From: an uncultured virus (IMG/VR IMGVR_UViG_3300048590_001227)
Taxonomy: Duplodnaviria > Heunggongvirae > Uroviricota > Caudoviricetes
Strand: one strand, 5' to 3'
DNA length: 64,000 bases
IMG/VR virus record: IMGVR_UViG_3300048590_001227
Every line of letters begins with the position of its first letter. Position 1 is the stretch's first letter. Both the position numbers and the translations under genes were made by a program. Under the pieces are notes generated by a model. It saw only the letters and a program-made list of their open reading frames with translations. It did no database searches and was not told the origin of the DNA. Positions 23,785 to 57,219 of the stretch are shown here, one piece after another.

Positions 23785-23792
23785 GAGCTTCC

Positions 23793-28109: not shown

Positions 28110-28169
28110 AGTATTTGTGGGAGTAAAAAAGAAAACCCCATAGCCGGGTTAGTCTTTGCAAATATTCAG

Positions 28170-28208
28170 GGCCTTCAAGGTTACACAAGCAACCTTGAGG
28201 GCCGTTTT
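28170..28208 (+). terminator. Stem-loop / probable intrinsic terminator after czcA
   Basis: GGCCTTCAAGGTT-8 nt-AACCTTGAGGGCC followed by GTTTT. Confidence 0.6.
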
Positions 28209-28277
28209 ATGATCTTAGGATCATTCTTTGCATTCTAAATTTGTGGAAAACAAGCTCATTGTGTGAAGGAAGATATC

Positions 28278-30467
28278 ATGGATTCTTGTTGCGATCCTAC
28301 CCAGGACAAAAATTTGAAACCCTCGCAGGCCACGATCGACGAAAATAAGGCCTATCAGGAGGCAACTTCTTTCCGTGTCCCCCAAATGGATTGCCCGACT
28401 GAAATATCAGCAATCCAAGGTAAATTAGAAAGTGTCCGAGGTGTCGGCGGAATGAAATTCGATCTTGAGAAAAGAATTTTGGTTGTCAAACACGATGGCG
28501 AAGAAATTTCATCCAATAAGATCGTAGAGCTGCTGGATGCAATCGGTCTCAAAGCTTCCGTTCTTGGGAAGGAAGAAACGAACGATGGCCAGCATAGTCA
28601 CAGTAGTCAGTCGGTAAATTATGTGCGGCTCGGACTTGCTGGTCTTTTTGCTATAGCAGCCGAAACGTATGAACTGGGCTTTAAAGGAGGCATGGATTGG
28701 ATCGTTCCGGTACTGGCCTTCTCGTCGATATTACTGTCCGGTTTGGATGTTTACAAGAAAGGTTTTGCGTCCCTATTGAAGGGTCAGTTAAATATCAATG
28801 CTTTAATGTCTTTTGCAGTGACAGGTGCCCTTGTAATCCGGCAATGGCCGGAAGCCGCCATGGTCATGTTTCTTTTTGCAGTTGCTGAAATGATTGAAGC
28901 CAAGGCGTTTGATCGTGCGAGAAATGCTTTCAAAAAACTTCTCGAACTTGCTCCAGACGTTACCACGGTAAAAAATTCCGCAGGTGTGTGGGAGGAGCGT
29001 TCGACCAAAGATGTCGCCATTGACTCCATCGTTCGAGTTCGGCCCGGAGAAAGGATAAGTCTGGATGGACAGATCGTAAAAGGGTCATCTTCTATCAATC
29101 AGGCTCCTATTACCGGGGAAAGTGTTCCTGTTGAAAAAACAGTGGGAGACAAAGTATTTGCAGGAACCATCAATGAAGCGGCTGAAATAGAATTCAAGAC
29201 CACCTCAGAGGCAACACACTCAACTTTAGCGAAAATAGTGGAAACTGTTGACTCAGCTCAAAACGCCAGAGCCCCTACCCAAAGATTTATTGATCAATTC
29301 TCCAAATATTACACCCCTGCTGTGTTTCTAATGGCTGTTGCGGTTGCAGTTCTTCCGCCACTATTTTGGGGTGGCCTATGGTTCGATTGGTTTTATAAAG
29401 CGCTGGTGCTCCTGGTAATCGCATGCCCTTGTGCTCTGGTGATTTCAACGCCTGTAACAATTGTAAGTGGACTCAGTGGAGCTGCCAAACACGGGATATT
29501 GATAAAGGGGGGAGCCTATATTGAAAAGGGCGCAAAACTGAAGGTCATTGCTCTGGACAAGACAGGAACCATCACTTTCGGCAAGCCTCGACAAACCGAT
29601 TTTGAAATTTTGGACGGCGGAGAACAAAAGACCGTGCATTCGCTCGCTGCAAGTCTTGCTTCCCGCTCGGATCACCCGGTGTCTCAGGCACTTGCCTTGA
29701 ATGCGAAGGAAGTTGATATCCCTCTGTACGAGGTTTCAGACTTTGCGGCTATGGGTGGACGGGGTACGAAAGGCATCATCAATGGTGAGCAGTATTATCT
29801 CGCCAATCATAGATTTATTGAAGAGCTGAAAATTTGTTCTGAGGCTGTAGAGCAATTGCTTGAAAAATATGAGCGGGAGGGTAAAACGGTCGCCATTCTT
29901 GCGACAGATTCACGTGTTATCGCTCTGTTTAGTGTGATTGATACGGTAAGACCTTCGAGCAAGGAAGCGGTGGAGCAACTGCATAATCTTGGCATCAAGA
30001 CGGTCATGTTGTCTGGTGATAACCAGTTGACAGCTGAGAAGATTGCCCGAGAGGTTGGAATTGACGAAGCGAAAGGACATTTGCTTCCTGACGATAAGAT
30101 GGAAGCAATCAAAAACTACAATGCCGCGAATCAACCAATAGGAATGGTTGGTGATGGTATAAATGATGCCCCTGCGCTTGCCATAGCCGACATTGGATTC
30201 TCGATGGGTGTTGCAGGAACTGACGTGGCAATTGAGACTTCTGATGTTGCTATCATGGATGACGACCTGCGAAAAGTTCCCCGCTTTATTGAAATGTCCA
30301 GGAGAACGAATAGGCTGCTCAAACAGAATATAGCTCTCGCCATCGGAATCAAAGCTGTTTTCTTCGTATTGACACTTATGGGTTTGAGCACGATGTGGAT
30401 GGCGGTCTTTGCTGATACAGGAGCAAGTCTATTAGTTGTGATAAATGGACTTCGACTGAATAAGTAG
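28278..30467 (+). CDS. cadA: Heavy-metal P1B-type ATPase (Zn/Cd/Pb, CadA/ZntA-like)
   Basis: MDCPTE N-terminal metal site; TGES, CPC, DKTGT, HP and GDGINDAP motifs. Confidence 0.93.
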   Translation: MDSCCDPTQDKNLKPSQATIDENKAYQEATSFRVPQMDCPTEISAIQGKLESVRGVGGMKFDLEKRILVVKHDGEEISSNKIVELLDAIGLKASVLGKEETNDGQHSHSSQSVNYVRLGLAGLFAIAAETYELGFKGGMDWIVPVLAFSSILLSGLDVYKKGFASLLKGQLNINALMSFAVTGALVIRQWPEAAMVMFLFAVAEMIEAKAFDRARNAFKKLLELAPDVTTVKNSAGVWEERSTKDVAIDSIVRVRPGERISLDGQIVKGSSSINQAPITGESVPVEKTVGDKVFAGTINEAAEIEFKTTSEATHSTLAKIVETVDSAQNARAPTQRFIDQFSKYYTPAVFLMAVAVAVLPPLFWGGLWFDWFYKALVLLVIACPCALVISTPVTIVSGLSGAAKHGILIKGGAYIEKGAKLKVIALDKTGTITFGKPRQTDFEILDGGEQKTVHSLAASLASRSDHPVSQALALNAKEVDIPLYEVSDFAAMGGRGTKGIINGEQYYLANHRFIEELKICSEAVEQLLEKYEREGKTVAILATDSRVIALFSVIDTVRPSSKEAVEQLHNLGIKTVMLSGDNQLTAEKIAREVGIDEAKGHLLPDDKMEAIKNYNAANQPIGMVGDGINDAPALAIADIGFSMGVAGTDVAIETSDVAIMDDDLRKVPRFIEMSRRTNRLLKQNIALAIGIKAVFFVLTLMGLSTMWMAVFADTGASLLVVINGLRLNK

Positions 30468-31970: not shown

Positions 31971-32255
31971 ATGACTTTTCAAAGAGCTCGATGTCCTTGG
32001 AAACAATTGCCTCAATCGGATAGCCTTCTGAGATCAAAGGAGGTCGAAGTGCATTACGATACTGAACCACTTGTTCACGCGATTCTTGAAGCCATTGAGC
32101 TTGCCAGTGCATGCCCGGAATGTGGCAGGCTTTCGCTACAAATCCTTCTCACAGCTGATGGCTGCCCATACTGCGGAAAGAACGAAGCACAGCATCATAA
32201 TTCCCGCCGCCATTCCCTCATGCTCAATCCAGGCTCTTCAAAAAAGCTTCTATGA
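31971..32255 (+). CDS. Possible small Zn-ribbon protein
   Basis: CPECG…CPYCG; start uncertain; 3' end overlaps the convergent antirepressor gene. Confidence 0.35.
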   Translation: MTFQRARCPWKQLPQSDSLLRSKEVEVHYDTEPLVHAILEAIELASACPECGRLSLQILLTADGCPYCGKNEAQHHNSRRHSLMLNPGSSKKLL

Positions 32256-33012
32256 CTGTCGCATGATAGATGCCGATGCCAGCTGGATACCGATCGGAAG
32301 TCAGTTTCTTGACCTCAATTCCCAGTTCCCGGCTCCTCTTCGCCAGCTTCCGCCCAAGCATATTCTCGCCGATTTTCGCAAGCTCCGGATGCCGAACAAT
32401 AGCAACCGCTGCGGTCGCCCATTCCTCGGATTCGCCAAGGCGTTGGGCGAGGTTCTCAATCGTGCCGTCCCGCTCAGTTACGAGCCGAAGCGCATGGTTC
32501 CTGGCCTTTACCGCATGAGAGGCCGTATTCATGGCCGTAGCGGTCTTTCGGTCGGAAATCTGCGCTTTGGTCCGAATGGCTTCATCGCGCTCCTGTTCGA
32601 TTACCCGAACGCGATCGGCAAGGGCTTGGAGGAAGTCCGAATCCAGGACATCCGGGATGGCGGTGAGCTTGTGATTCAGGCCGTGCTCGTAGACGAGCCG
32701 CTCACATTCGATGAAATACTGTCGGACCTTCTTGCCCTCTTCAGTCCGCGAGAGCATGCAAAGCTCTTTCGCAGTGTTGATCGTGACCCAGTATTCTTTC
32801 AGCGTTGTCCCACCGGTTTCTCGTTTCACTTTTAGGTGAAACGAGCCAAAGTCTTCATTTTCATTGAAAATAGCGAGGTTCTGGTTCGCCCAATCCGCGA
32901 AGTGCTTTTGCACTCTCAGCTGCTTCCAGATATCCCGCAGGAGCACCTTTTGATCGCCGGTCAAGCGGGTTGGTTTAATGAAATCAACGTATATGATGTT
33001 TGCCGTATCCAT
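32224..33012 (-). CDS. Phage antirepressor (AntA/AntB-type N-terminus)
   Basis: EYWVTINTAKELCMLSRTEEGKKVRQYFIECE; AIRTKAQISDRKTATAM. Confidence 0.85.
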   Translation of the reverse strand: MDTANIIYVDFIKPTRLTGDQKVLLRDIWKQLRVQKHFADWANQNLAIFNENEDFGSFHLKVKRETGGTTLKEYWVTINTAKELCMLSRTEEGKKVRQYFIECERLVYEHGLNHKLTAIPDVLDSDFLQALADRVRVIEQERDEAIRTKAQISDRKTATAMNTASHAVKARNHALRLVTERDGTIENLAQRLGESEEWATAAVAIVRHPELAKIGENMLGRKLAKRSRELGIEVKKLTSDRYPAGIGIYHATVIEAFLKSLD

Positions 33013-34249: not shown

Positions 34250-34783
34250 TCAGACCTCAAAATTCCTGTCGAAGCTGTTCTTCACGGTCTGGGATACCTG
34301 ATCACCGAAACCCCACCGCGGCTTTGTCGTTTTGGAAGATTTCAAGAGATAGAGGATCTTTATGTGACCACCTTTCATGCGCTGATAAATGCCTTCCAGC
34401 CCGTGAATTTCGCCCTTGAAAATATCCTTCCGACCAATCGTTGCCCGTGGCAGCATCCCTCGTGGAATGTTGTCGCGGGGACTGCGCCGGACATCTAACG
34501 GTATCGCCACATGGCCAGACGCCTGGTACTTCTCACCGTCCTCCTGCTTGCCCATATAAGGATCGATTGAGTAAACCCGAGACTCCAGCGAATCGGGTGT
34601 TGCCCTATCGAACCTGATGCCCTTCATGACCCATGATCGGCGTAACGTAAAGGTGCGGGGCATCGCCTCCTTGATCGCCGCAGAGGCGTCGCGAGCAGTA
34701 AGCGTGAGGGCCTTAGCCACCGCGAAGCGCACTGATTTCTTCACGCCGTCGAGATCAGGGATGTCGATTCGCACACTAAGCAT
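34250..34783 (-). CDS. Phage protein, tail completion (lambda gpZ-like) candidate
   Basis: Basic protein with VRFAVAKALTLTARDA pattern; family call from memory of similar phage proteins. Confidence 0.5.
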   Translation of the reverse strand: MLSVRIDIPDLDGVKKSVRFAVAKALTLTARDASAAIKEAMPRTFTLRRSWVMKGIRFDRATPDSLESRVYSIDPYMGKQEDGEKYQASGHVAIPLDVRRSPRDNIPRGMLPRATIGRKDIFKGEIHGLEGIYQRMKGGHIKILYLLKSSKTTKPRWGFGDQVSQTVKNSFDRNFEV

Positions 34784-35051
34784 AGGCTTTGGTTTCTTCC
34801 TGCTGAAGAGGGTTGAAAAGGTGCTGCGATCTGCTCTGATTGGCCAAATCGTGCAATATTTTCAGTTCCTCTTGCGTCAGCTGCAACCCAATCTTCAGCT
34901 TGTTGAGCGATTTGATCGTAGGTTGCTGCTCACCATGTTCCATACGCTTGATCTGCCTCCGGGACAACTTGCTGCGCTTATGCAGATCTGTGTAAGTGAC
35001 ACCCTTACGCTCGATCAAGTTTCTGAGGTAGCTGCCAAAGCTTATTTCCAT
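34776..35051 (-). CDS. XRE-family HTH protein
   Basis: FGSYLRNL…LSRRQIKRMEHGEQQPTIKSLNKL. Confidence 0.85.
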   Translation of the reverse strand: MEISFGSYLRNLIERKGVTYTDLHKRSKLSRRQIKRMEHGEQQPTIKSLNKLKIGLQLTQEELKILHDLANQSRSQHLFNPLQQEETKAYA

Positions 35052-35106
35052 GTGTGCTCCCAATATTTCCCGACAGGAGGAGATTGCTATTCGATGACCG
35101 ATTGAT

Positions 35107-39261: not shown

Positions 39262-40581
39262 TCACTTTTTTTCTGCAGTGTTGTGATTTTCGCGAGATAG
39301 ATTTTCATCCAGTTTGCTTCCGGCATCTTTGTGCGCTTCTTCAAACATCTGCGCCAGGGTCTTCAGTGACGCGTATGACAAGCGAATCGGTCTTCGTTCG
39401 CGCGATTGCCAAAGCTGATCGGTCCAAGCGGCAAGCTGCAGCGTATAGTCCAAGCCTCTTTTGGAGAGCATGTCGGCTACCCAGTGATTGAGCAAACTCC
39501 AGTCGATGAATTCGTATCTGGAAGCGAAGCACTGTTGAAAATCTTTTGCGATGCTTACGACTTGCGGAGTTATTTTTGGATGATCGTCACTTTCTGAGTT
39601 GACAGTATCCTTTGCCTGACCTATCACGCGGGCGCGCGCGGATTTACTTTCCATCCATCCATTAGTAAGTATTTTCTTGTTGTCTATGAAGAATCTCAAA
39701 GTTAAAATAGATCTTGAGATCTTTAAATCCGGATCTAAACCCTCAATACCTGAAATCCTTAAATCCGGATCTCTGAGTATTCTCTTAACGCGACTCTGCG
39801 CCACCCCCCCTCCTGGCCCAGAGTCATGGTCCAGATCTGCAGCCTCATGAGTTCCGCCATTCTCCCCGAACCGATCTTGAAATTCGACAATGCGACGCTT
39901 CAGTCGCGCGAAGATGTTTTGGTAGCGTTCGAGCTCATCCCAGGTTGTTCGCCCGGGCAGTCGGCTTAGCTTTGCAAGATCTCGTTGAACCTGTCTGGAA
40001 ACCTTTCCAATGCGCTTAAACTCGACCGGGCGATCCTCAGTCCTCAATTCATCGATCGCGGCAGCAGCGATCTTTTCCGCGTGGAGAACGAAAGCTGTGG
40101 GCGCAATGAAGTACGTATTATTTTGTGACCCGGATGCGTGCGACTGGCCTTCGACTATTAGGATCAATCGACGATCGGCCAAGCGATTCAGGGCGCGCTG
40201 CACGGTCCTGCCATCCAGGCTCGAACGTGACGCAAGAAGTTTCAGACCAGGGCAAATTGCCACCCCATCGATCCTATACTGCTTGACCCACCCCCTATCC
40301 GCGCAAGACACGAGCACATGCAGCAGATACCGATCGAGGGCCTGCAAATCTTCAGGAAGTGCATCAAAAGCAAGGTAGTACGGCGTCGCGCAAAATGGAT
40401 CAAATCGAGAATTCTCAAGGTAGTTCTGCAAAAGTATGGACTCCCATAAAATTAATTCAAACGCGTGAGAGAACTGCAATATCGCCGAGAACGAAGAATC
40501 TTCATTGCTGCAAGGGCAGAGTGAACGTTTTTTAGAGTCTCTCTTACAAGCGTCGAAAGGGTTGGTACTCATGTGTTTCAT
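39262..40581 (-). CDS. Phage replication initiator-like protein (winged HTH)
   Basis: CPGLKLLASRSSLDGRTVQRALNRL…NTY pattern; internal direct repeats; heads the early operon. Confidence 0.7.
   Translation of the reverse strand: MKHMSTNPFDACKRDSKKRSLCPCSNEDSSFSAILQFSHAFELILWESILLQNYLENSRFDPFCATPYYLAFDALPEDLQALDRYLLHVLVSCADRGWVKQYRIDGVAICPGLKLLASRSSLDGRTVQRALNRLADRRLILIVEGQSHASGSQNNTYFIAPTAFVLHAEKIAAAAIDELRTEDRPVEFKRIGKVSRQVQRDLAKLSRLPGRTTWDELERYQNIFARLKRRIVEFQDRFGENGGTHEAADLDHDSGPGGGVAQSRVKRILRDPDLRISGIEGLDPDLKISRSILTLRFFIDNKKILTNGWMESKSARARVIGQAKDTVNSESDDHPKITPQVVSIAKDFQQCFASRYEFIDWSLLNHWVADMLSKRGLDYTLQLAAWTDQLWQSRERRPIRLSYASLKTLAQMFEEAHKDAGSKLDENLSRENHNTAEKK
39723..39772. repeat. Direct repeats inside the replication gene (candidate iterons/ori)
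   Basis: TTAAATCCGGATCT at 39723-39736 and 39759-39772, next to an AT-rich stretch. Confidence 0.55.
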
Positions 40582-40990
40582 ATGTCGTCACCGGGCTACA
40601 CATTTCTGCAAGACATCGTTGAAGTCGAGTAAGTTTTGGATGGGATTGGTAAATTCATCGTCATGATTTGAAAACGTTCCGCGGTTTGACTAAAGAGCCA
40701 ATTGGTTTGCGACAAACGACGCAAGTGCCGATGGAAAAGTGAAACCGCGATGGATCAAATCTTCGCTTTTTGTATTCCGAGATGAATAAGCGTCATCAGA
40801 TCGTCACCGCGTCCGTGCTTCCGCATGAATTTGGATTCCATGACGGATAAGACGAGAGTTGTTGGACTCCGTGACGAATAAAAAAGACGGTTGTCGTCAC
40901 CAGTCTGGTTAAACTCAAACCATGGCGAAGAATAATAAAGCGAGTCGTTTTCAAACCATTCCGATATTGAAACCGGAGCAGATGTAAACT
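40582..40990. promoter_or_regulatory. Divergent early control region with repeated CGTCA(C/T) boxes (candidate operators)
   Basis: TCGTCACC at 40585, 40801 and 40894; TCGTCAT at 40658; GCGTCAT at 40790; inverted ATGACGG at 40840 and GTGACGA at 40871. Confidence 0.5.
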
Positions 40991-41758
40991 ATGGAATCAT
41001 TCTTAGAGCATGTATCCGAAGCCATCATGAATTGGACTTCGGAACGCTCGGGCCGAACACTGAGGGGGTTGGCGATGACGCTGGGCGTTAATGAAACGAC
41101 TCTTCGTCGATTGCGTGACAAAAGTAACGAGCCAAGTTTTGAAGCGTTTGAGGCTCTTCTGCCGATCGTTGATCAGGAAATGGCACTGCAGTATGGCGAA
41201 AAGAAATGGCCAGGGAAGGTGCAACGTATAAGGCACACCTTGAAGCAGAACATGATCGCCTGCGTTCGGCTGCAGGAAATGATGATCAAAGACCAAGCCC
41301 ATTTTGTTGTGATCAATCTCTGCGCGATGCCGAAGGGTGTGAGTTTGTGCCATGTGGAAGATATCACTGGCGCGGCAGGCGTAAGGATACTCGACGAGTT
41401 GGTAGATAAACTTTTGGCGCATCGTGACATGGAGGGTCAGTTTCATCTTTTTCAAAAATTCTTTCAGATCACGGGCTTTGAGTCCTTGCTGAAACAGATT
41501 GATGCAATCCAAAAAACGGCTCCATACTTTGAAGCCAAATGGCGAGCAGCGCATGTCGTGACGAAATCATTTTCGCCTGCCGGCTATGTGAAGGCTCGGG
41601 AAGCAGAGCAGAAATTGCTAGAAGAGCTTGAGAGAATTGAGCGTATTGAAAAATATCAGGGCGATCAAATGTTTGTCCTTGGAATGATGTCGGGACTACT
41701 TAAAGGAGAACCAAGTGAGAAGGAAGATGTTTCTGTTATTGGGGATGGTGTCCAGTAG
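40991..41758 (+). CDS. HTH regulator (TIGR02147/DUF4423-like), in the repressor position
   Basis: TLRGLAMTLGVNETTLRRL HTH, central wHTH-like segment, C-terminal helix/strand; paralog at 49844..50599. Confidence 0.65.
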   Translation: MESFLEHVSEAIMNWTSERSGRTLRGLAMTLGVNETTLRRLRDKSNEPSFEAFEALLPIVDQEMALQYGEKKWPGKVQRIRHTLKQNMIACVRLQEMMIKDQAHFVVINLCAMPKGVSLCHVEDITGAAGVRILDELVDKLLAHRDMEGQFHLFQKFFQITGFESLLKQIDAIQKTAPYFEAKWRAAHVVTKSFSPAGYVKAREAEQKLLEELERIERIEKYQGDQMFVLGMMSGLLKGEPSEKEDVSVIGDGVQ

Positions 41759-42014
41759 CGCTTTCGCTGGCCAGACCAGTAGTGGTGGAGGAATTGCAGT
41801 GCGGCAGATTGCTGAAAATCTGTTTAGGTTTCCGGAAGGGCATGACTTGGGCGGGTTGAACTTGGACGACGAAATCGAAATCGAAGGTGGTGTATTTCGC
41901 GTTGTCGGCGTGAGCGCTTTGACAGGTAATATCATAATGCAGTCGGCAAGTGGCGCTAGGATCGAAATCCAGGCTGGCTCTGATTTTCCAATAGATTCGA
42001 TGCCTCAGCAATAA
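41715..42014 (+). CDS. Small secreted protein with Gly-rich motif after the signal peptide
   Basis: …SSSAFA|GQTSSGGG; overlaps the 3' end of the HTH gene. Confidence 0.75.
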   Translation: MRRKMFLLLGMVSSSAFAGQTSSGGGIAVRQIAENLFRFPEGHDLGGLNLDDEIEIEGGVFRVVGVSALTGNIIMQSASGARIEIQAGSDFPIDSMPQQ

Positions 42015-42057
42015 GGATCGTTTTTTCATTCAATATGAAGAGACAGACACTAAAATC

Positions 42058-42411
42058 ATGAGCAAAAGAATACTCTTTGTAGAAGACAATGATTCGTATC
42101 GGCAAATGATGGTCGAAATTCTGGAAGCATACGGCCATAGGGTGACACAAGCCGAGAGCGGTAGTCAGGCTTTGCAACTGATGTCCTCCGGATATACCCC
42201 TGACGTGGCAATAATTGACCTGCACATGCCGAAGATGGATGGTATTGAGCTGACCCGCGAGATTCGGAAACGTTACCTGACTCCCGTCTATCTCTGTACT
42301 GCGGACGAGAAAGCTGAGTCCCTTATTGAGGGGATCGAGTTGATTTGGGTCGTTGACAAATCTCTCGAAGGAATCCGATCGATGATTGAAGGTGTTGAGA
42401 AAGTTGTATGA
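42058..42411 (+). CDS. Stand-alone response regulator receiver (CheY-like)
   Basis: ILFVEDN, IIDLHMPKMDG, conserved T and K. Confidence 0.93.
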   Translation: MSKRILFVEDNDSYRQMMVEILEAYGHRVTQAESGSQALQLMSSGYTPDVAIIDLHMPKMDGIELTREIRKRYLTPVYLCTADEKAESLIEGIELIWVVDKSLEGIRSMIEGVEKVV

Positions 42412-42414
42412 GAA

Positions 42415-42489
42415 AAGGGCGACCAGTGGTCGCCCTTCAGTTCTACTTTCAAATGGCCCAACTGGAGAAATCTAGTTGGGTCATTTTTT
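42415..42489 (+). terminator. Tandem hairpins / intrinsic terminator
   Basis: AAGGGCGACC-AGT-GGTCGCCCTT, then AAATGGCCCAACTGGA-GAAA-TCTAGTTGGGTCATTT followed by a T run. Confidence 0.8.
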
Positions 42490-42754
42490 CTTCGGTTTTC
42501 CCTTCACCCCACGATCATGATTCAGATTGGTCAATTTCTACTGAAATTTTTTCTTACGCTGTCCTATTAAATTAAAATTTACCTTATTTATTATAGTGAC
42601 TTATGTCTATGATCACGCCGAAAGGACCTCCGAGACACTCTCGAAGCAATTTCAGCGGTTATTTGTTTTATGCCAATCCGAAAAAATTGGCTTTCGATGA
42701 TCCGCTGTGGTTAAAAGCTCAAAATGTAAAACGTTGTGTGAAAGAGAGAGCCCT

Positions 42755-44434
42755 ATGAAAGCAAGCCGACTGTTATCTCTTTTAATGTTTTTGTTTTTAT
42801 ATGCATGCTCCGACAGCCAGAGTTCGACCCTTTCGGGTGAAGGTGTTGAGCTTGAGACTGCGAGAGAATTGTTTATGAGACGCGGTGATAATCATGAAGC
42901 TTTGCTCGTGGCTAAAAACTTCATTCAAAACAAATTAGACACCGTGCCCGATGTTTATCCCAACTATATCGATCGTATGGAAGCCAGTATTCTCCTTTTT
43001 CGTCTTACCTACTATGAGGCTAAGCACTACTACGCAACCGATAAATCGACCAGGAAAAAGCTGCTTCTGGAGAACGCCGCGAACGTGGACAAGTATCTTA
43101 GTCCAGCGACGCTAGGCTGGGAACACCCAGGCTATTACTATTACAAAATGCAGTCACTTCTTGCCTACGCTGACGACGGCATCTATCTAGAGCAGCTGAG
43201 CGTTTTCTCGAAGATACTCGGGCTTATCTACGACAGCGATAAAGCGGCCGGTAGTGATATCTACGAAGGTGGTGGCATGTATCGCCTTGAAGCTGAATTT
43301 TGGTCGCGCGAATATATCCGAGGCACGCCTGGACTTGCCTATAATCCTGAGTTGTCGCTGAAACTCATAGACTACGCTATCAAAGCAGACCCCTATCCTG
43401 GTCAATATTCTGGCGACCTTTACTGTGAGAATTTTCTTCTCCGCGCGGAATACGAATACCGGGTCAGCAAAGCCGCTGCTAAGCCTTCAGTTTATGCTGC
43501 TCAGCTAGCTGAGATATTCGAACTTTATGTCGCTGATGAATTGATCCCACCTATGGATAAGATCGAAGCCGTCGAATGTATAGCGAAAGCAAAAAACTTT
43601 GCTGCGAGCAAAGGCGTAGTCATTCGTCAAATGAATGGTGACACCGAAGGACATAGTTTTGAGTTTAACGCCACCGCTTATTTCAGTTCCACCGCCTCAT
43701 ACTCAGGCAAAGTCGCACTGGAAGCCTACTGTGGAGCTTGGGACCTCATGACTCCTCCACTTCCTTTGGCTGGCAGCGCGTATTTTGACTATGATCCTTC
43801 CAAGTCTGGAAAGTCTTATGCACTTAGTCTTACGCTTTCCGGCGATAGCGTCCCTTGTGTTCCAAGGTGGCTCGCTTTCAACTCAGACAGAATTAGCGTC
43901 AGCACTTCCAACGTTGACGTGAGGTTTGTGGATTATGGTCTGACCGACGAAAAATACGCGGCAGATACCAAAAATCAGCTCGACGACACTTATTCTCAGC
44001 AGATGGCAAACTACAGTATATCCATGGCCCAGCAGGCTCTGGCGCAACCTAACATGTTCTGTAACATTCAGCAGGCCACGAAGAATCCAAGAATCGACGC
44101 TGGTTTTATTCAGAAAGTGAAATCAGACTACTACGGTGTCTTTGGCGTTCTCTTCGACGACCCTGATCATCAGTTCGCCTGTCCTCCCACGGAAACTTTG
44201 AAAGGTCAAATCAACATTTGCGTGGTGAGTCCGTCCAAGTCTACCCCTTTCTGCAACTCTTACCGCCTCTATATGCAGTCGCTTGGCTGGATTAATTCGC
44301 AGTTGGTTGAGACCAACCGACGATTGGAAAAAATTTCAAACAAGGAGTCCCAGATTTACAAGAACCTCCAAACCCTCAGTGAAAGACTGCAGGAGGAGAG
44401 CGATAACTCTGACGAAGTTCTGGGCGAAGACTGA
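42755..44434 (+). CDS. Lipoprotein with TPR-like N-terminal half and Cys-containing C-terminal half (toxin operon gene 1)
   Basis: LYAC lipobox; YEGGGMYRL…LSLKLIDYAIKADP…ENFLLRAEY TPR-like helices; C-terminal coiled coil. Confidence 0.75.
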   Translation: MKASRLLSLLMFLFLYACSDSQSSTLSGEGVELETARELFMRRGDNHEALLVAKNFIQNKLDTVPDVYPNYIDRMEASILLFRLTYYEAKHYYATDKSTRKKLLLENAANVDKYLSPATLGWEHPGYYYYKMQSLLAYADDGIYLEQLSVFSKILGLIYDSDKAAGSDIYEGGGMYRLEAEFWSREYIRGTPGLAYNPELSLKLIDYAIKADPYPGQYSGDLYCENFLLRAEYEYRVSKAAAKPSVYAAQLAEIFELYVADELIPPMDKIEAVECIAKAKNFAASKGVVIRQMNGDTEGHSFEFNATAYFSSTASYSGKVALEAYCGAWDLMTPPLPLAGSAYFDYDPSKSGKSYALSLTLSGDSVPCVPRWLAFNSDRISVSTSNVDVRFVDYGLTDEKYAADTKNQLDDTYSQQMANYSISMAQQALAQPNMFCNIQQATKNPRIDAGFIQKVKSDYYGVFGVLFDDPDHQFACPPTETLKGQINICVVSPSKSTPFCNSYRLYMQSLGWINSQLVETNRRLEKISNKESQIYKNLQTLSERLQEESDNSDEVLGED

Positions 44435-44477
44435 GGCGGTTGACGGTTGATTTAACTAAGGAGAGAGGGAAAATCAC

Positions 44478-45857
44478 ATGAAAATCAGACCAGCAGTTTT
44501 TCTTTTATTGTTTTCCACAGGGCAGTTGCTTGCGGACGCGAGCAATCAATGCCTTGTTGATCAGAGAGCAGCGAAAAATCCGTCCGAGGAAATTCTTGAT
44601 AGACTTGACGAATGTATGAAGGATAAGTCTTGCGCCCAGGAAGATAGGCAATATGTTTGTCCGTGGGCGGAAAGCAGAAGCGAGCTGCCAAGTCTTTCAG
44701 ATGACGAAAAGAAAAAAGTTGACGAGCTGTGCGAGCAATGTGAGCAAATGGAAGTCATTGCCTGCAGCTATTCACTTAATTCTGCCAATGAGAGTTTTAA
44801 CAAAGCGATAAAGGTTTTTGTTGACGACAACGACGCAGCCAAGCCTTTGATTTTTGGCTACGCTAAACCGAATCCAGTAGCCAATAATCTAAACCTCGCC
44901 GCCAACCTTAGAAAACTCATGGACGACAATGAAGTTTTCAAAACTGAACTGAAGACTCTGACAGACAAGTTGACCGCTCTTACCCAAAATATCACCAGCG
45001 AAACTATTCTGCGTGCAAACCTCAAAAAATCTCAACAGGCAACGCAGGACTTTGCTCAGAAATGGGCCGGTCTTTACAAAGACAGCGCCCAGCTCTACTA
45101 CCTTACTTCTGAGTTGCTTGATTTCATGGCAGAGTGGCAGGATCGTATGCTTGCCACGCAACATGATTCTGGCTGCTCGGCTATTAGCGGGGAAGTTGAT
45201 AAGGCTTCGGCTGCTGGCGAAGCGTTTGTCTCCCAGCTGGAATCAATCACCACAGCGCTTGAAAACCTCAGCTTTTCAAAACGTCTGGAGCTGGCAGGAA
45301 ATTTTTCTGAAAATGCAATTAAGCTCAGCTACCTGGCTGCCAGCAGAAAAACGGTTGAAGAACTCCATGCTTCGATTGGTGCAGTGCTTGACCTTGATAG
45401 AAAGGTTATGGAGTCAAACCTCTGGTGGATTGAGGTCAGTCGCGGTGGCCTCGCGAGCGGTCTTCACACAAGCTATTACCAATATAGAAAGCCTCTTGAA
45501 ATTCTCGTAACCGCTGTTGGCGAAGGTCAGAAGTTTATCGACCAGGTCAGAGCCATTAAAGGCCTGTCTGCTTCCGCTATGACGGCTGCAGTCAATGGAC
45601 TTCAGGGCCGCCAGAACCTTTTGCAAAGTGACATTACTTGGCTCAAAACACGCGGCTGGAAAGGCCAGTATAAATCTCAGGTGGAAACCGTTGACTCCTG
45701 GCTGAAATCTCTGCCCCGCAAAGATTCGACCTGCGGAAAGCTTCTCGCAGCCTACCAAAATCAGACGAAAAGCTTTCTGGGTGAGGACTTTGAAGTCTTT
45801 GAAGCTGAGATCGAGCCAAAATTCATTCAGGCTATTCAAGCCTGCGAAGCGGAGTAA
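44478..45857 (+). CDS. Secreted helical/coiled-coil protein with Cys-rich N-terminus (toxin operon gene 2)
   Basis: Signal peptide (…QLLA|D), Cys cluster, long amphipathic helices; ends 3 nt before the toxin start. Confidence 0.8.
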   Translation: MKIRPAVFLLLFSTGQLLADASNQCLVDQRAAKNPSEEILDRLDECMKDKSCAQEDRQYVCPWAESRSELPSLSDDEKKKVDELCEQCEQMEVIACSYSLNSANESFNKAIKVFVDDNDAAKPLIFGYAKPNPVANNLNLAANLRKLMDDNEVFKTELKTLTDKLTALTQNITSETILRANLKKSQQATQDFAQKWAGLYKDSAQLYYLTSELLDFMAEWQDRMLATQHDSGCSAISGEVDKASAAGEAFVSQLESITTALENLSFSKRLELAGNFSENAIKLSYLAASRKTVEELHASIGAVLDLDRKVMESNLWWIEVSRGGLASGLHTSYYQYRKPLEILVTAVGEGQKFIDQVRAIKGLSASAMTAAVNGLQGRQNLLQSDITWLKTRGWKGQYKSQVETVDSWLKSLPRKDSTCGKLLAAYQNQTKSFLGEDFEVFEAEIEPKFIQAIQACEAE

Positions 45858-45860
45858 GAC

Positions 45861-48353
45861 ATGAAGAACCTGATATCAACGCTTCTTACACTTTCCGTCT
45901 TTACATCCTGCCATAAAGTAGATGAAAGCGCGGCCACACTGAAAGGCATTGTTGGCGAGGACAATTCAGCCAAAGCTAAAGACAAAGCGGAATTCGCCGA
46001 CCTTCTTACTAGACAGACTGATATAGGTCTTGTTCTTAATTGCAACGGGGTGAAGCTCTCGGATGGTCGGTTTCTGACCGCGGCACATTGCCTGAAGCCA
46101 CATGCTGGTAAAGACGTTCAGCTACTCGGCAGAAAGATAGTCACAAACCTTCATCAGGTTGGCAGTTTCGATTTGGTTGTAGGCCAGTTGATAGGCGGAG
46201 CTGCGCCGTCGGAGAGTATAAGACTCTTTTCTGGGACGATTTCTTCAACCGTTCAGCTCGAAGCCAACTGGTTTGACTATAAAACCGGTGAATGGCGTGT
46301 CAGCCGGGGTGAAGGCACTGTTGAAGGTGCTTTCATTAAGCACAATCTTGATACCAATCCAGGCTCTTCGGGCTCGGCCCTCTACACAGTGGACAGCTCG
46401 GGGCAAAAGCTGCTCGTTGGCGTTCATATTGGGTTTGCTAAGGAAGCTAATACCAACGTCGGTGTTCTGCTGTCAAAGGCCTTGGACGCAAATTTCAGCC
46501 CCTCCTCGGCTGAGCTCGTGAAATACGAGGCGGAAGATACTCACGTTACCTACGTCTGTAGCCGAGCCACAGGTGAATGCTACCGGGTGCAGGAGTCCGA
46601 TAACGGAAGTGATGAAGGCGGTAACGGGGGAAGCAGCGGTGGGGACGGTGGCAATCCGTCCGGCCCAAGTGACGGCGCTCCAGGTGGTGGAGGCGACGGT
46701 GGAAGCGTTGGCGGCGGTGGTGATTCAGGAGGAGGAGATAGCGGTGGTATCGGTGACGGTGGAGACAGCGGTGGCGACGGTGATTACGGCGAAGGCGGCG
46801 ACGGCAACGACGGTGGTGACTACGGCGGCGGCGAAGGTGGGGTCGATGGCGGCTCTGACGGCGGAAGCAGTGGAGGCATTCCTGGAGTTGTCATAATTCC
46901 CGAAGTGGTTCCAGGCGGAAGTGCAGGTCATGGCGGCAGCAGTAAGGGTGGTGCAGCAGCCAAGGATTGCTTCAACTGCGACCGGCTCAGCTGGGAGCTG
47001 AAAAATAACGACCTCTTTAAACCCGAATGTGAGACGCCAGGCGTCGCGCCCAACCTCAAGCCCATGCTCAAAGGGACCAAGATTGAGTTGGTGGACGGAG
47101 CGCCACTTCCAGAATTTCGTTTTAACCCTAGTGACGACAAATTCACGCAGTCTCTCAAGGATTTTGCGGAAAAGTTGAAGGAAGCGACCAAGTGGAAAAC
47201 TACGCCTGAGCTGGCTGATAAAATGGCCAAGCTCTCTAAAGAAGAGCTGGAGCGCCTGCAGAAGTGGATGGAGAGCGTCGTCAAGAACCTCGACGATTAC
47301 TACGCCCTTCTAGTCGCCTCCATGAAGTCCGACCAGCTGACAGCGCCTGACGAAATTCCCGAGGTGGATGTCTCAAAAGAGGGTATTGATGCCGCTAAGC
47401 GCTATCTTGATGCAGTTAAAAAACAGATAGCCCAGAATCCAGACCAGTATCTGGAAGCGCGCCTGTCGCTGGCAGATTCGAGCGCCAGGGCTCTTGATAT
47501 TGCCACCGAGGCCCTGGAGAGCGGGGATAAGGAAACAGCCGAGGCGGCCATTTCGATGGGGCGTGCACTTGCTGACGCTTCGCTCGGGTGGGTTCCAGGA
47601 GTCGGTTTTGCCAAAGATTTGGTCGAGGCGACCACCGGCTACAACTACATTACAAAGCAGGAACTCACCCGTTTCGAGGTGGTTTCAGCCTGGGTAGGTG
47701 TATTCAGCGCCGGGTATGGCAGTAAAATACTCGCCACTGGAAAAGCCATTAAGCTCGTGGCCGTGGCTGGGCGCATTGCCAAGACCAGTAAACTCGGCGC
47801 TAAGCTTGAGCAATACGGGGTTCGCGCCAAGGAAATCTATGACGTTGCGTCGAAGGCCGGGATAAAGGACAGAAAGAGGATCGGCGAAGTTTTTGACGCA
47901 GTTAAACGCCGTCTGCCAAGCGCCAAGTTCGAGGAGCTGGAAGAGGAAGTCGCAAATGCGTTCAAACGCTACGAAGGTCTTCCTCTTATAAATGGCAAAA
48001 AGCCCAGGAATGGTCACTATGCAGGCAACACTTACTATGAAGGCCTTAGTGACAAGCTTAAGGGGAAATATCCAGACGGCGTCAAATTCAACGAAAAGGG
48101 TTTCCCCGACTTCTCGCCTTACGCTATGAAGTTTGAGAACGGCAACTCGTCGGTAGTGATTCAGGCCGGTCTTTCGCCAAAGGCTGATTTTGCGGCAGCG
48201 AACAAAGCGGCAGGACTCGCGAAAAAGCCAAAAGGATTTACTTGGCATCACCACGAGGACACTGGTGTTATGCAGCTCATTCCAACCGACCTGCATAAAG
48301 CTGTTGGACACACAGGCGGTTGGGTAATCTGGTCAGGAGGTTTGAAGCTATGA
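45861..48353 (+). CDS. Polymorphic toxin: lipoprotein signal + trypsin-like serine protease + Gly/Asp linker + PT-TG pre-toxin domain + WHH/HNH nuclease
   Basis: FTSC lipobox; TAAHC / FDLV / DTNPGSSGS triad; LGWVPGVGFAKDLVEATTGYNYIT; GFPDF…WHHHED…MQLIP…H…HTGG. Confidence 0.9.
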   Translation: MKNLISTLLTLSVFTSCHKVDESAATLKGIVGEDNSAKAKDKAEFADLLTRQTDIGLVLNCNGVKLSDGRFLTAAHCLKPHAGKDVQLLGRKIVTNLHQVGSFDLVVGQLIGGAAPSESIRLFSGTISSTVQLEANWFDYKTGEWRVSRGEGTVEGAFIKHNLDTNPGSSGSALYTVDSSGQKLLVGVHIGFAKEANTNVGVLLSKALDANFSPSSAELVKYEAEDTHVTYVCSRATGECYRVQESDNGSDEGGNGGSSGGDGGNPSGPSDGAPGGGGDGGSVGGGGDSGGGDSGGIGDGGDSGGDGDYGEGGDGNDGGDYGGGEGGVDGGSDGGSSGGIPGVVIIPEVVPGGSAGHGGSSKGGAAAKDCFNCDRLSWELKNNDLFKPECETPGVAPNLKPMLKGTKIELVDGAPLPEFRFNPSDDKFTQSLKDFAEKLKEATKWKTTPELADKMAKLSKEELERLQKWMESVVKNLDDYYALLVASMKSDQLTAPDEIPEVDVSKEGIDAAKRYLDAVKKQIAQNPDQYLEARLSLADSSARALDIATEALESGDKETAEAAISMGRALADASLGWVPGVGFAKDLVEATTGYNYITKQELTRFEVVSAWVGVFSAGYGSKILATGKAIKLVAVAGRIAKTSKLGAKLEQYGVRAKEIYDVASKAGIKDRKRIGEVFDAVKRRLPSAKFEELEEEVANAFKRYEGLPLINGKKPRNGHYAGNTYYEGLSDKLKGKYPDGVKFNEKGFPDFSPYAMKFENGNSSVVIQAGLSPKADFAAANKAAGLAKKPKGFTWHHHEDTGVMQLIPTDLHKAVGHTGGWVIWSGGLKL
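46603..46960 (+). repeat. Low-complexity Gly/Asp/Ser-rich linker within the toxin gene
   Basis: Runs of GGN codons encoding GGDGG/GGDSGG units. Confidence 0.85.
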
Positions 48354-48859
48354 TAAATCCGGTAGTTCTGGAAAATCTTGAAAAGAGCGAAGACAAGGCG
48401 ACGGAAAAAGCGCTGAAGAGGTTTGAGAAAAAAATCAAGGCGCAGCTGCCAAAGGACTACCGTGAGTTTCTGCTTCAGACCAATGGCGGCTATACGGAAA
48501 AGGTTTTATCGTACCCATTCACCCTGAATGGAAAACCAAGCGCCAGCAATATCGACTCTTTTTACGGTCTGTCTGAAGAAGAAGGCGAAGGTTCACTGAT
48601 TGAAAACTTTGATACCTTCCGCGACAAGGACGAGCCGAGAATGCTCGATTACATGATCCCAATTGGCGAGGACGAGGGCGGCAATCAAATCGTTCTTCTT
48701 CTCAATAAGAAGGAATATGGACATGTCTACTTCTGGGACCATGAGAGCGAAATTGATTTTGAAAACATGGAAGAAGGCGAGAGCGATAGAGACAACTGTC
48801 ATCCGATAGCCAAATCGTTCACGGAGTTTTTAAACCTTCTGAAAGTAGACGACGAATAA
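48350..48859 (+). CDS. SMI1/KNR4 (SUKH) immunity protein
   Basis: LPKDYREFLLQTNGG, IPIGEDEGGN, VYFWDHE and IAKSFTEFL motifs; ATGA overlap with the toxin stop. Confidence 0.93.
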   Translation: MINPVVLENLEKSEDKATEKALKRFEKKIKAQLPKDYREFLLQTNGGYTEKVLSYPFTLNGKPSASNIDSFYGLSEEEGEGSLIENFDTFRDKDEPRMLDYMIPIGEDEGGNQIVLLLNKKEYGHVYFWDHESEIDFENMEEGESDRDNCHPIAKSFTEFLNLLKVDDE

Positions 48860-49442: not shown

Positions 49443-49838
49443 TTATTGTGCGAAATTCGTTAGTCTTCCGGCGCGGATAGTGGAAAGACGGTCAATCAGT
49501 TCAAACGACCCGAGGCTGTCGCCGTCCTTGACTTTATAGCTTTTCCGGATCAGATTTTGTCCTTCAACCGAATCGACGTTCTGACCAGCTTTCAACTCAA
49601 TCTCCGCATTATTTAAAAGTGGAGTATCAGAGGTGAGCGTGAAATTTACAGGGAGTTCAGTTTTGCTAAGCAACATGGAGTTATCATTTTCGCCTCTGAT
49701 CAATGCTAGGCTTTGACCAGAGCTCATGAGCATCGACATCTCGTCCTGGAGTGCTGGAGGCACACCGCCGCTGCCGCCGCTACCAGCGTAGAGAACTACT
49801 GAAGTCAGGGTTGTCGCCAGCAGGATAAGTTTTTTCAT
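49443..49838 (-). CDS. Small secreted protein with Gly-rich motif after the signal peptide
   Basis: …VVLYA|GSGGSGGVPPA; starts 5 nt after the HTH gene stop. Confidence 0.8.
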   Translation of the reverse strand: MKKLILLATTLTSVVLYAGSGGSGGVPPALQDEMSMLMSSGQSLALIRGENDNSMLLSKTELPVNFTLTSDTPLLNNAEIELKAGQNVDSVEGQNLIRKSYKVKDGDSLGSFELIDRLSTIRAGRLTNFAQ

Positions 49839-49843: not shown

Positions 49844-50599
49844 TTACCCCTCGATTTCGTCTTGCTTAAAATTTATTGGGCTGACCACAATAGTGGAACA
49901 CATTACCTGCCGACCTTTCAAAGACTCGTTTTTCTCAATCTCTTGAAGAGTATCGGCTAACTTAGCATGAGCTTCATAGTATTTTTTCATGCCTTCATCG
50001 TTCAGACCTGCCACCCAGTTTCTCATATAGCTGCCCGGGTTGGCTTTGGCATAAAACTGAATGTTGTGTTCCCCAACCTTTGCCAAAAGGTCCGTGTCCC
50101 AAAAATTTGCCTCAGCAATATTCGATTTAAAGGTCCCGTCGTCCTTTTGTTCGATTATCTTGCGCTGAAGTAGTTCGTCAAGTTCTCTCAGTCCTGGTTG
50201 TCCAGCTTCATTCAGAACGTCTTTTCTCTCAGCTCCCAGAACTTCGGTTGCAACACTATAGACTCGATAGCGGTCAAAATCCGAGAACGCGAAGTCTGCC
50301 AATTCATAAAGTTCATCGCTGGAATCTTCCGCTTCAGGGCCTTTTTCCAGCAGGTCTTTGGTTTCTGCAGGGTAGTGTTGCCCCAGCGTTGCTAAATAAG
50401 TCTGAGGTTCTATATGTTTCAGAAGTTTTTTCGCGTGAAAAAAACTGACGTTCTTCAGCTTATGTTTCGCGCTTGTCAGGCGATACACTACCATGTAAGG
50501 AACACCAATATCTTTCGCAAACCTCTTCGTAACAAGTTTTTCGCTCATGATATGTCGTTTGACAAGTTCACCGAGATAAGGAATTATTGGGTGTGCCAT
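49844..50599 (-). CDS. HTH regulator (TIGR02147/DUF4423-like), paralog of 40991..41758
   Basis: KRFAKDIGVPYMVVYRL HTH; AGQPGLRELDELL versus TGAAGVRILDELV; similar C-terminus. Confidence 0.65.
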   Translation of the reverse strand: MAHPIIPYLGELVKRHIMSEKLVTKRFAKDIGVPYMVVYRLTSAKHKLKNVSFFHAKKLLKHIEPQTYLATLGQHYPAETKDLLEKGPEAEDSSDELYELADFAFSDFDRYRVYSVATEVLGAERKDVLNEAGQPGLRELDELLQRKIIEQKDDGTFKSNIAEANFWDTDLLAKVGEHNIQFYAKANPGSYMRNWVAGLNDEGMKKYYEAHAKLADTLQEIEKNESLKGRQVMCSTIVVSPINFKQDEIEG

Positions 50600-50982
50600 C
50601 TTGGCCGCTCCAACACGAAATGATTGCTCTGAGTGACTCCAACTGTTGAGGTCGATAAGCGATGCTTGTTGAAAATGCAAAAGAAAAAAACAGCTGCGAG
50701 AAAAATTAAACGATTGTCCGGACATCGTGATTCAGTCTGGTTAATCATACCAGAGGCAAAAGAAAGAGAAGGCAAGGCGTTGGAGGCGGTATAAGTCTTC
50801 AGTAAAATTGAAGATTATCGAAAACGGGGGGAGGTTTCTAAGCGGCAATTAGAGTTATAGAGACCATGCAATCCGCCAGCTCCAAAGACTCTGCTTCCAG
50901 TCCCCAGGTTGGGGAAATCTTCGGCAGATGGAGCCAGAATTCCTATCGAAGCTGGAATGTCGTTGATCTCACCGAGCGGTCT

Positions 50983-51795
50983 TCATCGGGCCGTTTTTTG
51001 TGATTTCAGCATGCCTTCGCGATAGTCTCCGGCGTACATTCGCACAAGTGGATCTTCGCTGCTTACCATTTCAAATTCAGGTAACTGAATCACGAGTTTT
51101 TTCGCCGCTTCGCGATCAACTGCAATTTTGTGACACTGGACTGAGCTGAACCATTTTTCTCGGCAATAGGAGTCGCCGACAGCGACAACAGCGTGTTCAA
51201 ACGCGGAACCCATTACTGTTCCTCGATCTGGCTGGTATATGACTTTGGGCTTAGAGAAGATTATCTGTCCGTAGGAAATGGAAGCCAGACCCTTGCGGAG
51301 TCCACCGGATAAATCGTCCACACATGAATACCACGACGCCACCAGTTCTTTGATCGTTTGTCTTTGATTTTCAAAGTCCATACGAATCGGATGCCCAATG
51401 AGAATCACGGCAGCCGGAATCGATCCCCATAGCCCCATATCGTAAGCCTTGGAATCCTGAAATTGACCGGTCTTGATATTGTTTCGCAGCTTGAATAGGG
51501 CAAAAGTCTCCTCCAAAGGCCCGGGATATGGTTGGGTTGAACCATCCTCTCTGTTCATTGTTACGAGAGCGAGCATAAATCCATTCGCTGTTCCTTCTCC
51601 GATTCCGCGGTTGAAGTTTGTGAAGGCTTCATACAGCGAATGCACCTCCTCTCGACCAGATCGATATTCTGGAAGTCGCCATATTCTCGCAAAGATTTTA
51701 GTAATCAATACCAGTACGAGCGCGCCCATGGCGATCATAGCGATCCATTGAATCCATTCCATCGGCAAAATTAGCTCCGGGATGAGAGTTGCCAA
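50983..51795 (-). CDS. Membrane-anchored protein, possible degenerate class III cyclase-like domain
   Basis: N-terminal TM; SISYGQII…TVMGSAFEHA…IAVDREA pattern; overlaps the receiver gene. Confidence 0.55.
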   Translation of the reverse strand: MATLIPELILPMEWIQWIAMIAMGALVLVLITKIFARIWRLPEYRSGREEVHSLYEAFTNFNRGIGEGTANGFMLALVTMNREDGSTQPYPGPLEETFALFKLRNNIKTGQFQDSKAYDMGLWGSIPAAVILIGHPIRMDFENQRQTIKELVASWYSCVDDLSGGLRKGLASISYGQIIFSKPKVIYQPDRGTVMGSAFEHAVVAVGDSYCREKWFSSVQCHKIAVDREAAKKLVIQLPEFEMVSSEDPLVRMYAGDYREGMLKSQKTAR

Positions 51796-52124
51796 AGCAT
51801 GGCCTGGATTCCTTCGGTCGTTTTATCCACAAGCACGGCGTTGGAAATGTTCTTCAATAGCGCATGTGCTTTTTCGTCTGAGGTGCATAAGATTATCGGT
51901 ACAGACAGCTTCTTACGAATGACCGTGGCGAGTTCGATTCCGTTCATAGTAGGCATGTTGAAATCAGTCACAACATAATCCGGGGGGAATCCGGCTGATA
52001 GGATATCCAAAGCTATTTTACCATTTTCCGCTTGGCTAACAGTATGGCCGAGCTCTTCAAAAACTTCGGCAAGGATTTCACGGAAAGGCTGATTGTCATC
52101 TACCAGCAAGATATTTTGAGGCAT
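51771..52124 (-). CDS. Stand-alone response regulator receiver, paralog of 42058..42411
   Basis: ILLVDDN, VTDFNMPTMNG; shared LCTxDEKA and VDKxxEGI. Confidence 0.92.
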   Translation of the reverse strand: MPQNILLVDDNQPFREILAEVFEELGHTVSQAENGKIALDILSAGFPPDYVVTDFNMPTMNGIELATVIRKKLSVPIILCTSDEKAHALLKNISNAVLVDKTTEGIQAMLWQLSSRS

Positions 52125-52332
52125 TTCGTACTCCAGATTTGGCAATGCATTTATAATCTCACATAGCCTCATATATCCTAATGATAGCTCAAATAGCCAA
52201 ATTATTGCGCCCCCCCTGAGAAAAAGCCCCGGACGTCGTTTTTAGCATAAGTGTTTATATTGATTGACTTATGTGGTATAGTATCGGCAAGTGACCAAAA
52301 ATCTGGATTGATTTTGATAGGTTAGGGGAAGC

Positions 52333-57157: not shown

Positions 57158-57219
57158 CCTTCATTCGTGATTCATCCCAGGACAGCATTCTGGGTATCAT
57201 AAACATAGGAGACCAAAGC

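Follow-up and report, generated by a model that had tools for sequence, protein, structure and literature searches.

How does a temperate phage hold its early genes silent, and later let them go, when the regulator at its switch position cannot cleave itself? This question is raised by a locus within a 64,000-nucleotide stretch of DNA (the window, by which we mean the whole stretch analysed) from an uncultured tailed virus (IMG/VR record IMGVR_UViG_3300048590_001227; Caudoviricetes), in which a three-gene operon at positions 40991–42411 of the plus strand encodes a helix-turn-helix (HTH) regulator, an exported protein and a stand-alone receiver, here called HTH1, SP1 and REC1. RecA-driven repressor cleavage underlies most of the prophage switches that have been studied, with uncleavable repressors that respond to other inputs as a growing exception, and an initial annotation of this locus had proposed that lysis or lysogeny may be set instead by an exported signal or a host phosphorelay, in a layout loosely analogous to arbitrium. 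The explanation that we favour, with a confidence that stops a little short of even, is that HTH1 is an uncleavable immunity repressor seated at the early operon and released by an antagonist or signal, for which an AntA-family protein is a candidate, with SP1 and REC1 as passengers.

A three-gene operon at the switch position

The features on which this explanation turns are the following.

40991..41758, plus strand: HTH1, a 255-residue regulator with an Xre-type HTH and a winged helix, candidate uncleavable immunity repressor (AlphaFold model, family profile and linkage to the O-like gene)
41715..42014, plus strand: SP1, a 99-residue orphan with a Sec-type signal peptide (open reading frame, ribosome-binding site and coding-like codon score)
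42058..42411, plus strand: REC1, a 117-residue stand-alone response-regulator receiver (PF00072, E 4e-20)
42415..42486, plus strand: two tandem hairpins closing the operon (42415–42437 and 42451–42486, the latter followed by a T run)
40582..40990, no strand assigned: divergent control region separating the HTH1 operon from the early leftward operon (409 nt, no convincing open reading frame, carrying a repeat array and TCGTCAC half-sites)
40770..40881, plus strand: three direct 20-nt repeats, TTGGAYTCCRTGACGRATAA, candidate operators or iterons (copies at 40770, 40831 and 40862, spaced 61 and 31 nt apart)
39262..40581, minus strand: O-like replication initiator of 439 residues, first gene of the early operon (weak matches to phrog_678 and HTH_36)

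As the open reading frame (ORF) listing and family scans show, the HTH1 operon is divergent from a minus-strand replication, recombination and lysis operon, which reads leftward, in order, through the O-like gene, an xis-like HTH gene, an exonuclease, RecT, SSB, RusA and an endolysin. HTH1 starts 409 nt away from the beginning of the O-like ORF at 40581. The genes of the HTH1 operon are closely packed, with HTH1 and SP1 overlapping by 44 nt and a gap of 43 nt between SP1 and REC1, and the hairpins that close it have a minimum free energy of -44.4 kcal/mol and a folding z of -6.5, a stability that none of 200 shuffled sequences equalled. The gene order described in the initial annotation, a regulator overlapping a secreted protein and followed by a receiver and terminators, is thus borne out in each of its parts.

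Domain scans covered 66 distinct ORFs of the window, including plausible ORFs of at least 170 residues and leaving aside two longer ones that overlap scanned genes. Neither HTH1 nor any of these 66 ORFs matches the S24 peptidase family (PF00717), so that HTH1, as had been noted, occupies the switch position with an N-terminal HTH and no S24 domain. The broader claim that the phage has no CI repressor stands for S24-type proteins within the window; it reaches only as far as the window covers the prophage, the left end of which lies beyond the window start, and it has to accommodate another candidate regulator, the 95-residue Xre-type protein described below. HisKA and HATPase_c domains were likewise absent from the 66 ORFs, in agreement with the earlier observation that no histidine kinase is encoded nearby, and a partner for REC1 must therefore be encoded elsewhere.

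SP1 begins at a GTG codon 6 nt downstream of AAGGAG. Its N-terminus runs from MRRK through a hydrophobic stretch to SAFA, after which the mature protein is predicted to begin with GQTSSGGG, as annotated before, the cleavage site being assigned by eye with the AXA rule. Codon usage in the SP1 frame (score 0.23) is close to that of HTH1 (0.25), compared with 0.06 and -0.08 for antisense ORFs. Among 5.8 billion clusters SP1 found no homologue but itself, and its ESM Atlas model is of low confidence, with no usable neighbours. REC1 retains the acidic pair of receiver domains, and the phosphorylation residues D10, D54, T81 and K101 are invariant between REC1 and REC2, a second receiver of the same prophage introduced below. 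PADLOC reported no defence system; its matches were weak, involving the receiver domain of REC1 and a SUKH immunity protein.

Within the divergent region, the 20-nt repeat has three matches, which are also its only matches in the window, a number that none of 100 shuffles reached; TCGTCAC half-sites occur there in both orientations. The repeats could be operators, or else iterons for the O-like protein. Both homologues of the O-like protein lack its first ~55 residues (region 40420–40581); its actual start may be internal, with a control region of perhaps ~570 nt.

Fold, family and linkage of HTH1

HTH1 has no match in Pfam, PHROG or NCBIfam. Its AlphaFold model (pLDDT 89.6, pTM 0.69), built with an alignment of the distant family, resolves into two domains. 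Residues 1–75 form an Xre HTH, aligning with P22 c2, ImmR, DdrO and HipB at Z 6.7–7.0 (root-mean-square deviation 2.0–3.3 Å over 61–64 residues) and also with a lambda–186 hybrid repressor, the repressor set as a whole spanning Z 6.4–7.0. Residues 80–170 form a winged helix of the TubR, SmtB and ArsR types (Z about 6–7.3), followed by a helical tail and no peptidase domain, and structural similarity extends furthest for 4g6q, a functionally uncharacterised protein (140 residues at Z 7.4). Because these Z values lie in a range that is commonly seen, we claim only the domain types.

Close relatives of HTH1 number only two in 5.8 billion clusters. An exhaustive profile search reached further, to 38 proteins at E≤0.001, most of them 236–261 residues long and aligned over nearly their full length; Pfam recognises an HTH_3-type N-terminus in 18 of 35 distant members, and a profile made from these 35, with the window sequences excluded, finds HTH1 at E 1e-50. 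The earlier suggestion that HTH1 belongs to DUF4423/TIGR02147 proved reasonable as a structural lead and failed as a family assignment. In favour, an ESM Atlas structure search gave TM scores of 0.50–0.63 to three DUF4423 clusters (Fibrobacterota, Myxococcota), starting from an Atlas model that is itself of low confidence. By hidden Markov model (HMM), PF14394 (DUF4423) matches neither HTH1 nor HTH2, the second family member in this prophage, nor any of 36 relatives at E≤0.01, and TIGR02147 matches neither of the two, with a single one of 35 relatives giving a 12-bit N-terminal match against a cut-off of 50. HTH1 thus falls in an unnamed family, whose modelled architecture appears to resemble that of DUF4423.

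Related loci were sought more widely. The close HTH1 alignment found none in genome, viral or metagenome collections, and one distant member, searched singly, found none in metagenomes. In 301 genomes from the phylum of a Pseudobdellovibrionaceae metagenome-assembled genome, the wide family alignment gave four matches to the HTH only, the one inspected being a HipB/HipA pair. A family subgroup was not found in 401 genomes of that phylum, nor PF14394 in 121 genomes or in control genomes, by searches that probably miss families as divergent as these and are no evidence of absence. A literature search for DUF4423 by domain name returned a sole mention, one entry in the protein table of a proteomics study.

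What ties HTH1 to the phage is its company. Its two close relatives, 87% and 60% identical (P0002 and P0003), lie on one contig each, of 5758 and 20755 bases; the O-like protein also has only two relatives, 79% and 58% identical (P0046 and P0047), on contigs of 5758 and 20755 bases, and all four come from the same source, the Logan contigs. Judged from these matching sizes and the common source, HTH1 and the O-like gene share a contig in all three known instances, the window included, and their linkage is apparently conserved. Since it is kept down to ~60% identity, HTH1 would belong to the replication and immunity region rather than being loose cargo, and it is very probably a phage gene in this sense.

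From position, fold and linkage together we infer how the switch could work. HTH1, as the maintenance repressor, would keep the early operon shut from the 409-nt divergent region, in which the three repeats lie. As HTH1 cannot cleave itself, induction would require either an antagonist protein or a signal that acts outside its HTH, on the other domains, and the obvious candidate for the antagonist is encoded elsewhere in the prophage:

32224..33012, minus strand: AntA/AntB-family antirepressor, candidate inducer of an uncleavable repressor (PF08346, E 3e-15; phrog_5817 'anti-repressor Ant', E 2e-23)

Being co-transcribed with the repressor, SP1 and REC1 would be made in the lysogen, as rexAB are with lambda cI, and REC1, as a phosphorylatable single-domain receiver, would need a kinase from elsewhere.

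The surrounding prophage and its second cassette

A myovirus-like prophage, integrated at a tRNA and at least 55.7 kb long, contains the HTH1 operon. Its minus strand carries a tailed-phage genome from the beginning of the window as far as 40581, with structural and packaging genes for a collagen-like fibre, gpD, gpU, tape measure, tube, sheath, baseplate J and V, capsid E, an S49 protease, a lambda-type portal, gpA terminase and a small terminase. Beyond a block of cargo genes follow the AntA antirepressor, an outer-membrane beta-barrel protein, a tail protein, the endolysin, RusA, SSB and RecT, then a DUF3799 exonuclease, an HTH_17/excisionase-like protein and the O-like protein. The right end is marked by what we read as the attachment core, and behind it stands a further integrase:

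55668..55693, plus strand: attachment core at the right end of the prophage, a tRNA 3' terminus with T-arm, acceptor strand and CCA (sequence AGGTTCAAATCCTGCCCCCGCTACCA, read directly)
55805..57450: 450-residue tyrosine integrase (55805–57157), then a small HTH gene (family scans)

The core is unique in the window at up to three mismatches, and in the absence of a second copy the DNA from the window start to 55693 forms one integrated unit. ARAGORN and Rfam do not call the core as a tRNA, and its tRNA nature is judged from the visible T-arm and CCA. Contigs from four public runs (three studies; four of the 24 runs listed) were compared with positions 38001–58000 of the window. Where listed, contig pieces match the window without differences, bridging 40503–41258 and 39801–41075 across the divergent region. 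In all four runs, contigs that match as far as 55695–55697 continue into sequence unlike the window, in several versions, and three of the four also have a contig that arrives from other sequence and joins the window at 55667; two loose-end flanks are absent from the window. The letters before 55667 in these other contigs resemble, we presume, the anticodon arm of a tRNA-Met, a likeness that is not the result of a tool. The integrase behind the core looks like part of a second element in tandem; read depth over three bins of 56010–58000 was nil in three runs and 0.11 in one bin of the fourth, which is no evidence that this element is absent.

On the near side, the core adjoins a 233-residue ORF (54839–55540, minus strand) that stops before the expected catalytic tyrosine. 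Its motifs TGLRALEL and WHSCR, picked out by eye, are presumably recombinase-like, although we do not claim it as an integrase: it has no match in Pfam, PHROG or the PDB, and its single-sequence model has a pLDDT of 32. It is possibly a decayed integrase.

The provirus record in IMG/VR spans only the structural half of the element (3–19565; 19.6 kb, CheckV completeness 41%). Identity of TerL to known phages reaches 32% at most, and neither the O-like protein nor the exonuclease has a relative in IMG/VR; a 309-residue winged-helix protein, considered as a relative of the O-like protein, is not clearly related (E 0.064). The remaining landmarks include a collagen-repeat tail fibre at 145–1626 (E 8e-29), the beta-barrel protein at 33344–34012 (OMP_b-brl, E 3e-11) and a block of CusCBA type lying between the late genes and those for packaging and structure:

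22423..30467, plus strand: metal-efflux cargo block of outer-membrane factor, HlyD-type adaptor, AcrB/CusA-type pump and heavy-metal P-type ATPase (family scans)

The best relatives of its CusA, at 51–68% identity, come from many phyla and are uninformative on the host, which is probably a member of the Bdellovibrionota, a lead taken from the ESM Atlas. Positions 38500–46500 of the window occur wholly or partly in 20 of the 24 listed runs (11 studies), five of which contain at least half of the sampled words; the run labels include sediment, soil, lake-water and sludge metagenomes, a habitat range that we treat as a lead only.

Within the same prophage, 8 kb from the first and absent from the initial annotation, lies a second, diverged and paralogous copy of the trio (HTH2, SP2 and REC2; 49443–52172, minus strand). 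Its cassette, 49050–52172, reads REC2, a 270-residue membrane protein, HTH2, SP2 and a small lipoprotein, and the two cassettes flank a toxin operon on which the second converges from the opposite side:

49844..50725, minus strand: HTH2, second member of the HTH1 family (E 5e-31 to the independent family profile; true start probably internal, at MAHPIIPYLG)
49443..49838, minus strand: SP2, 131 residues, with a signal peptide and a predicted mature N-terminus GSGGSGG (starts 5 nt after HTH2; coding-like codon score)
51771..52172, minus strand: REC2, paralogous stand-alone receiver (PF00072, E 9e-19; 45% identical to REC1)
50983..51795, minus strand: 270-residue single-pass membrane protein (overlaps REC2; no family match)
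42707..48859, plus strand: cargo operon for exported proteins of 575 and 459 residues, an 830-residue polymorphic toxin and a SUKH immunity protein (family scans)

HTH1 and HTH2 are 24% identical over 139 residues, and none of the other ORFs among 394 in the window scores against the independent family profile. SP1 and SP2 share their place in the layout and no significant similarity (E 0.11–0.42). The toxin is of lipoprotein type, with PT-TG, a WHH/colicin-DNase end and a long Gly/Asp/Ser linker; near its N-terminus a trypsin-like TAAHC motif is visible by eye, without a Pfam call. That the same three parts recur, diverged, 8 kb away suggests that the trio is a reusable regulatory module of the host lineage rather than a communication device built for the phage.

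Repressor, cargo or sensor

Several of these results weigh against HTH1 as the immunity repressor. Its family has no PHROG match and no tblastn match in 50,697 phage records, none was found in IMG/VR with two pattern sets, and viral structures match HTH1 over the N-terminal HTH only; in the ESM Atlas, HTH1 lies closest to clusters of cellular 'hypothetical proteins', of up to 926 members, which are commonest in Bdellovibrionota. In the divergent region there is no match to a sigma-70 consensus and no clear palindromic operator, and direct repeats are less suited to a dimeric Xre HTH than to a winged helix or, as iterons, to a replication initiator. The shared contigs behind the linkage are themselves deduced from their sizes and source, HTH2 is a second family member in the prophage that cannot also be 'the' repressor, and AntA-family proteins are not always antirepressors. 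Finally, the real repressor could be encoded in the left part of the prophage, outside the window, or by a small gene within it:

34776..35063, minus strand: 95-residue Xre-type HTH protein, alternative phage regulator (HTH_31, E 2e-6; phrog_3 'transcriptional repressor', E 2e-8)

Much of this would be expected if the HTH1 operon were a moron, a host-type regulator with an exported protein, in which HTH1 controls its own and perhaps the toxin operon while one of those other genes keeps the phage silent, an account that we regard as possible though doubtful. The cellular distribution of the family and its absence from phages would fit, as would the paralogous cassettes on either side of the polymorphic toxin operon, the presence of further cargo in the Cus efflux block and the repressor annotation of the 95-residue protein. 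Loose cargo would not be expected, however, to yield two relatives of HTH1 that travel with the sole two relatives of the O-like protein down to 58–60% identity. A double terminator, moreover, separates the HTH1 operon from the toxin operon, the repeat array is confined to the divergent region with none before the toxin genes, and the gene for the 95-residue protein is located among late and lysis genes.

The remaining accounts make the locus a sensor. In the most general, an SOS-cleavable repressor has been replaced by a sensory switch, a DUF4423-like regulator set by a receiver fed from a host kinase, by the export state of the translationally coupled secreted protein, or by both, in an uncultured host that is probably a predatory member of the Bdellovibrionota; we think this unlikely. 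That phosphorylated REC1 binds or modulates HTH1, so that a host histidine kinase sets lysogeny and induction, appears quite unlikely, even though REC1 keeps every phosphorylation residue, is co-transcribed with HTH1, has no kinase in the window and belongs to a receiver pair better conserved between the two modules (45%) than the HTH pair (24%): proteins consisting of a receiver only are common, and in the second cassette the receiver is coupled to the membrane protein and not to HTH2. A literature search on receivers in prophages and lysogeny showed no receiver-controlled phage switch among the 10 titles that it listed. Still further from our expectation, and very improbable, is a peptide circuit in which a Gly-rich fragment, processed from exported SP1, returns to the cell and is sensed by HTH1, biasing the choice between lysis and lysogeny. 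The regulator followed by an overlapping signal-peptide gene recalls such a circuit, as does the like arrangement of HTH2 and SP2, both exported proteins having Gly/Ser-rich predicted N-termini; Gly/Ser stretches after a signal peptide are, however, ordinary flexible linkers. HTH1 has neither a tetratricopeptide repeat (TPR) nor another known peptide-binding domain in its model, neither HTH1 nor HTH2 matches the AimR model (NF038310), which picks up two distant relatives weakly and over the N-terminal HTH only, SP1 has a coding-like body of 99 residues rather than that of a short propeptide and is not conserved, and no peptide permease or processing protease is associated. The analogy to arbitrium therefore finds no support, and the wider proposal of an exported signal or phosphorelay fares poorly beside an orphan SP1, an HTH1 without a TPR-like receptor domain, a duplicated module and the AntA route to induction.

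If HTH1 does act as the repressor, DUF4423-like regulators would gain a first function, and an immunity system would be on record for a phage lineage of only three known members, belonging to a host group about whose temperate phages hardly anything is known. HTH1 is a repressor candidate from an uncharacterised family that is apparently widespread, with 38 profile matches and Atlas clusters of up to 926 members, and its position, at a clean divergent promoter furnished with a repeat array, makes it accessible to a simple reporter and an electrophoretic mobility shift assay. A sensory switch, if that reading were true, would likewise give DUF4423-like regulators a first role and would mean a phosphorelay-driven lysis–lysogeny decision in phages, and a cargo cassette an ordinary moron beside a polymorphic toxin locus.

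The HTH1 unit belongs neither to the S24 repressors nor to arbitrium, and HMMs do not place it in DUF4423/TIGR02147. With repressors of the lambda CI and LexA type, HTH1 shares the N-terminal HTH and lacks the C-terminal S24 domain with its Ser-Lys dyad. With the 'Fsuc_second' proteins of DUF4423/TIGR02147 it appears to share a similar length and an N-terminal HTH followed by a domain of ~170 residues, whereas neither HMM recognises HTH1, HTH2 or the distant relatives. Arbitrium (AimR-AimP-AimX) likewise places a regulator before a gene for an exported product near the lysis–lysogeny region, but SP1 is a 99-residue orphan, apparently not a propeptide with a C-terminal hexapeptide, and the host here is of diderm type. 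In the lambda cI-rexA-rexB arrangement, a repressor gene is co-transcribed with accessory genes expressed in the lysogen; the passengers here are instead an exported orphan and a receiver, without known exclusion function.

A phage transcription factor beside a small gene, giving an SOS-independent route to lysis control, is also found in the transcription factor–small ORF modules of linear plasmid-like phages, in which a cytoplasmic small protein is reported to inactivate a separate cI (Silpe et al. 2023, PMC10432266). In contrast to those modules, the small protein here, SP1, has a Sec signal peptide, the window shows no separate cI, and HTH1 itself occupies the repressor position. Uncleavable repressors that are inactivated by antirepressors are reported for Gifsy prophages and P22 Ant (PMC3121763). 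As in those phages, an Xre-type candidate without an autocleavage domain stands at a divergent switch and an Ant-family gene lies elsewhere in the prophage. LexA-type control of the ant gene was not found, the Bdellovibrio box, TTACNNNGTAA, matching only at 59948 and not near phage genes. HTH1 differs in its additional winged helix and tail, its DUF4423-like architecture and its lack of phage homologues, and its repressor role is putative. By analogy, the HTH1 unit would work most like these antirepressor-controlled, uncleavable repressors of Gifsy and P22, in a layout that resembles cI-rexAB.

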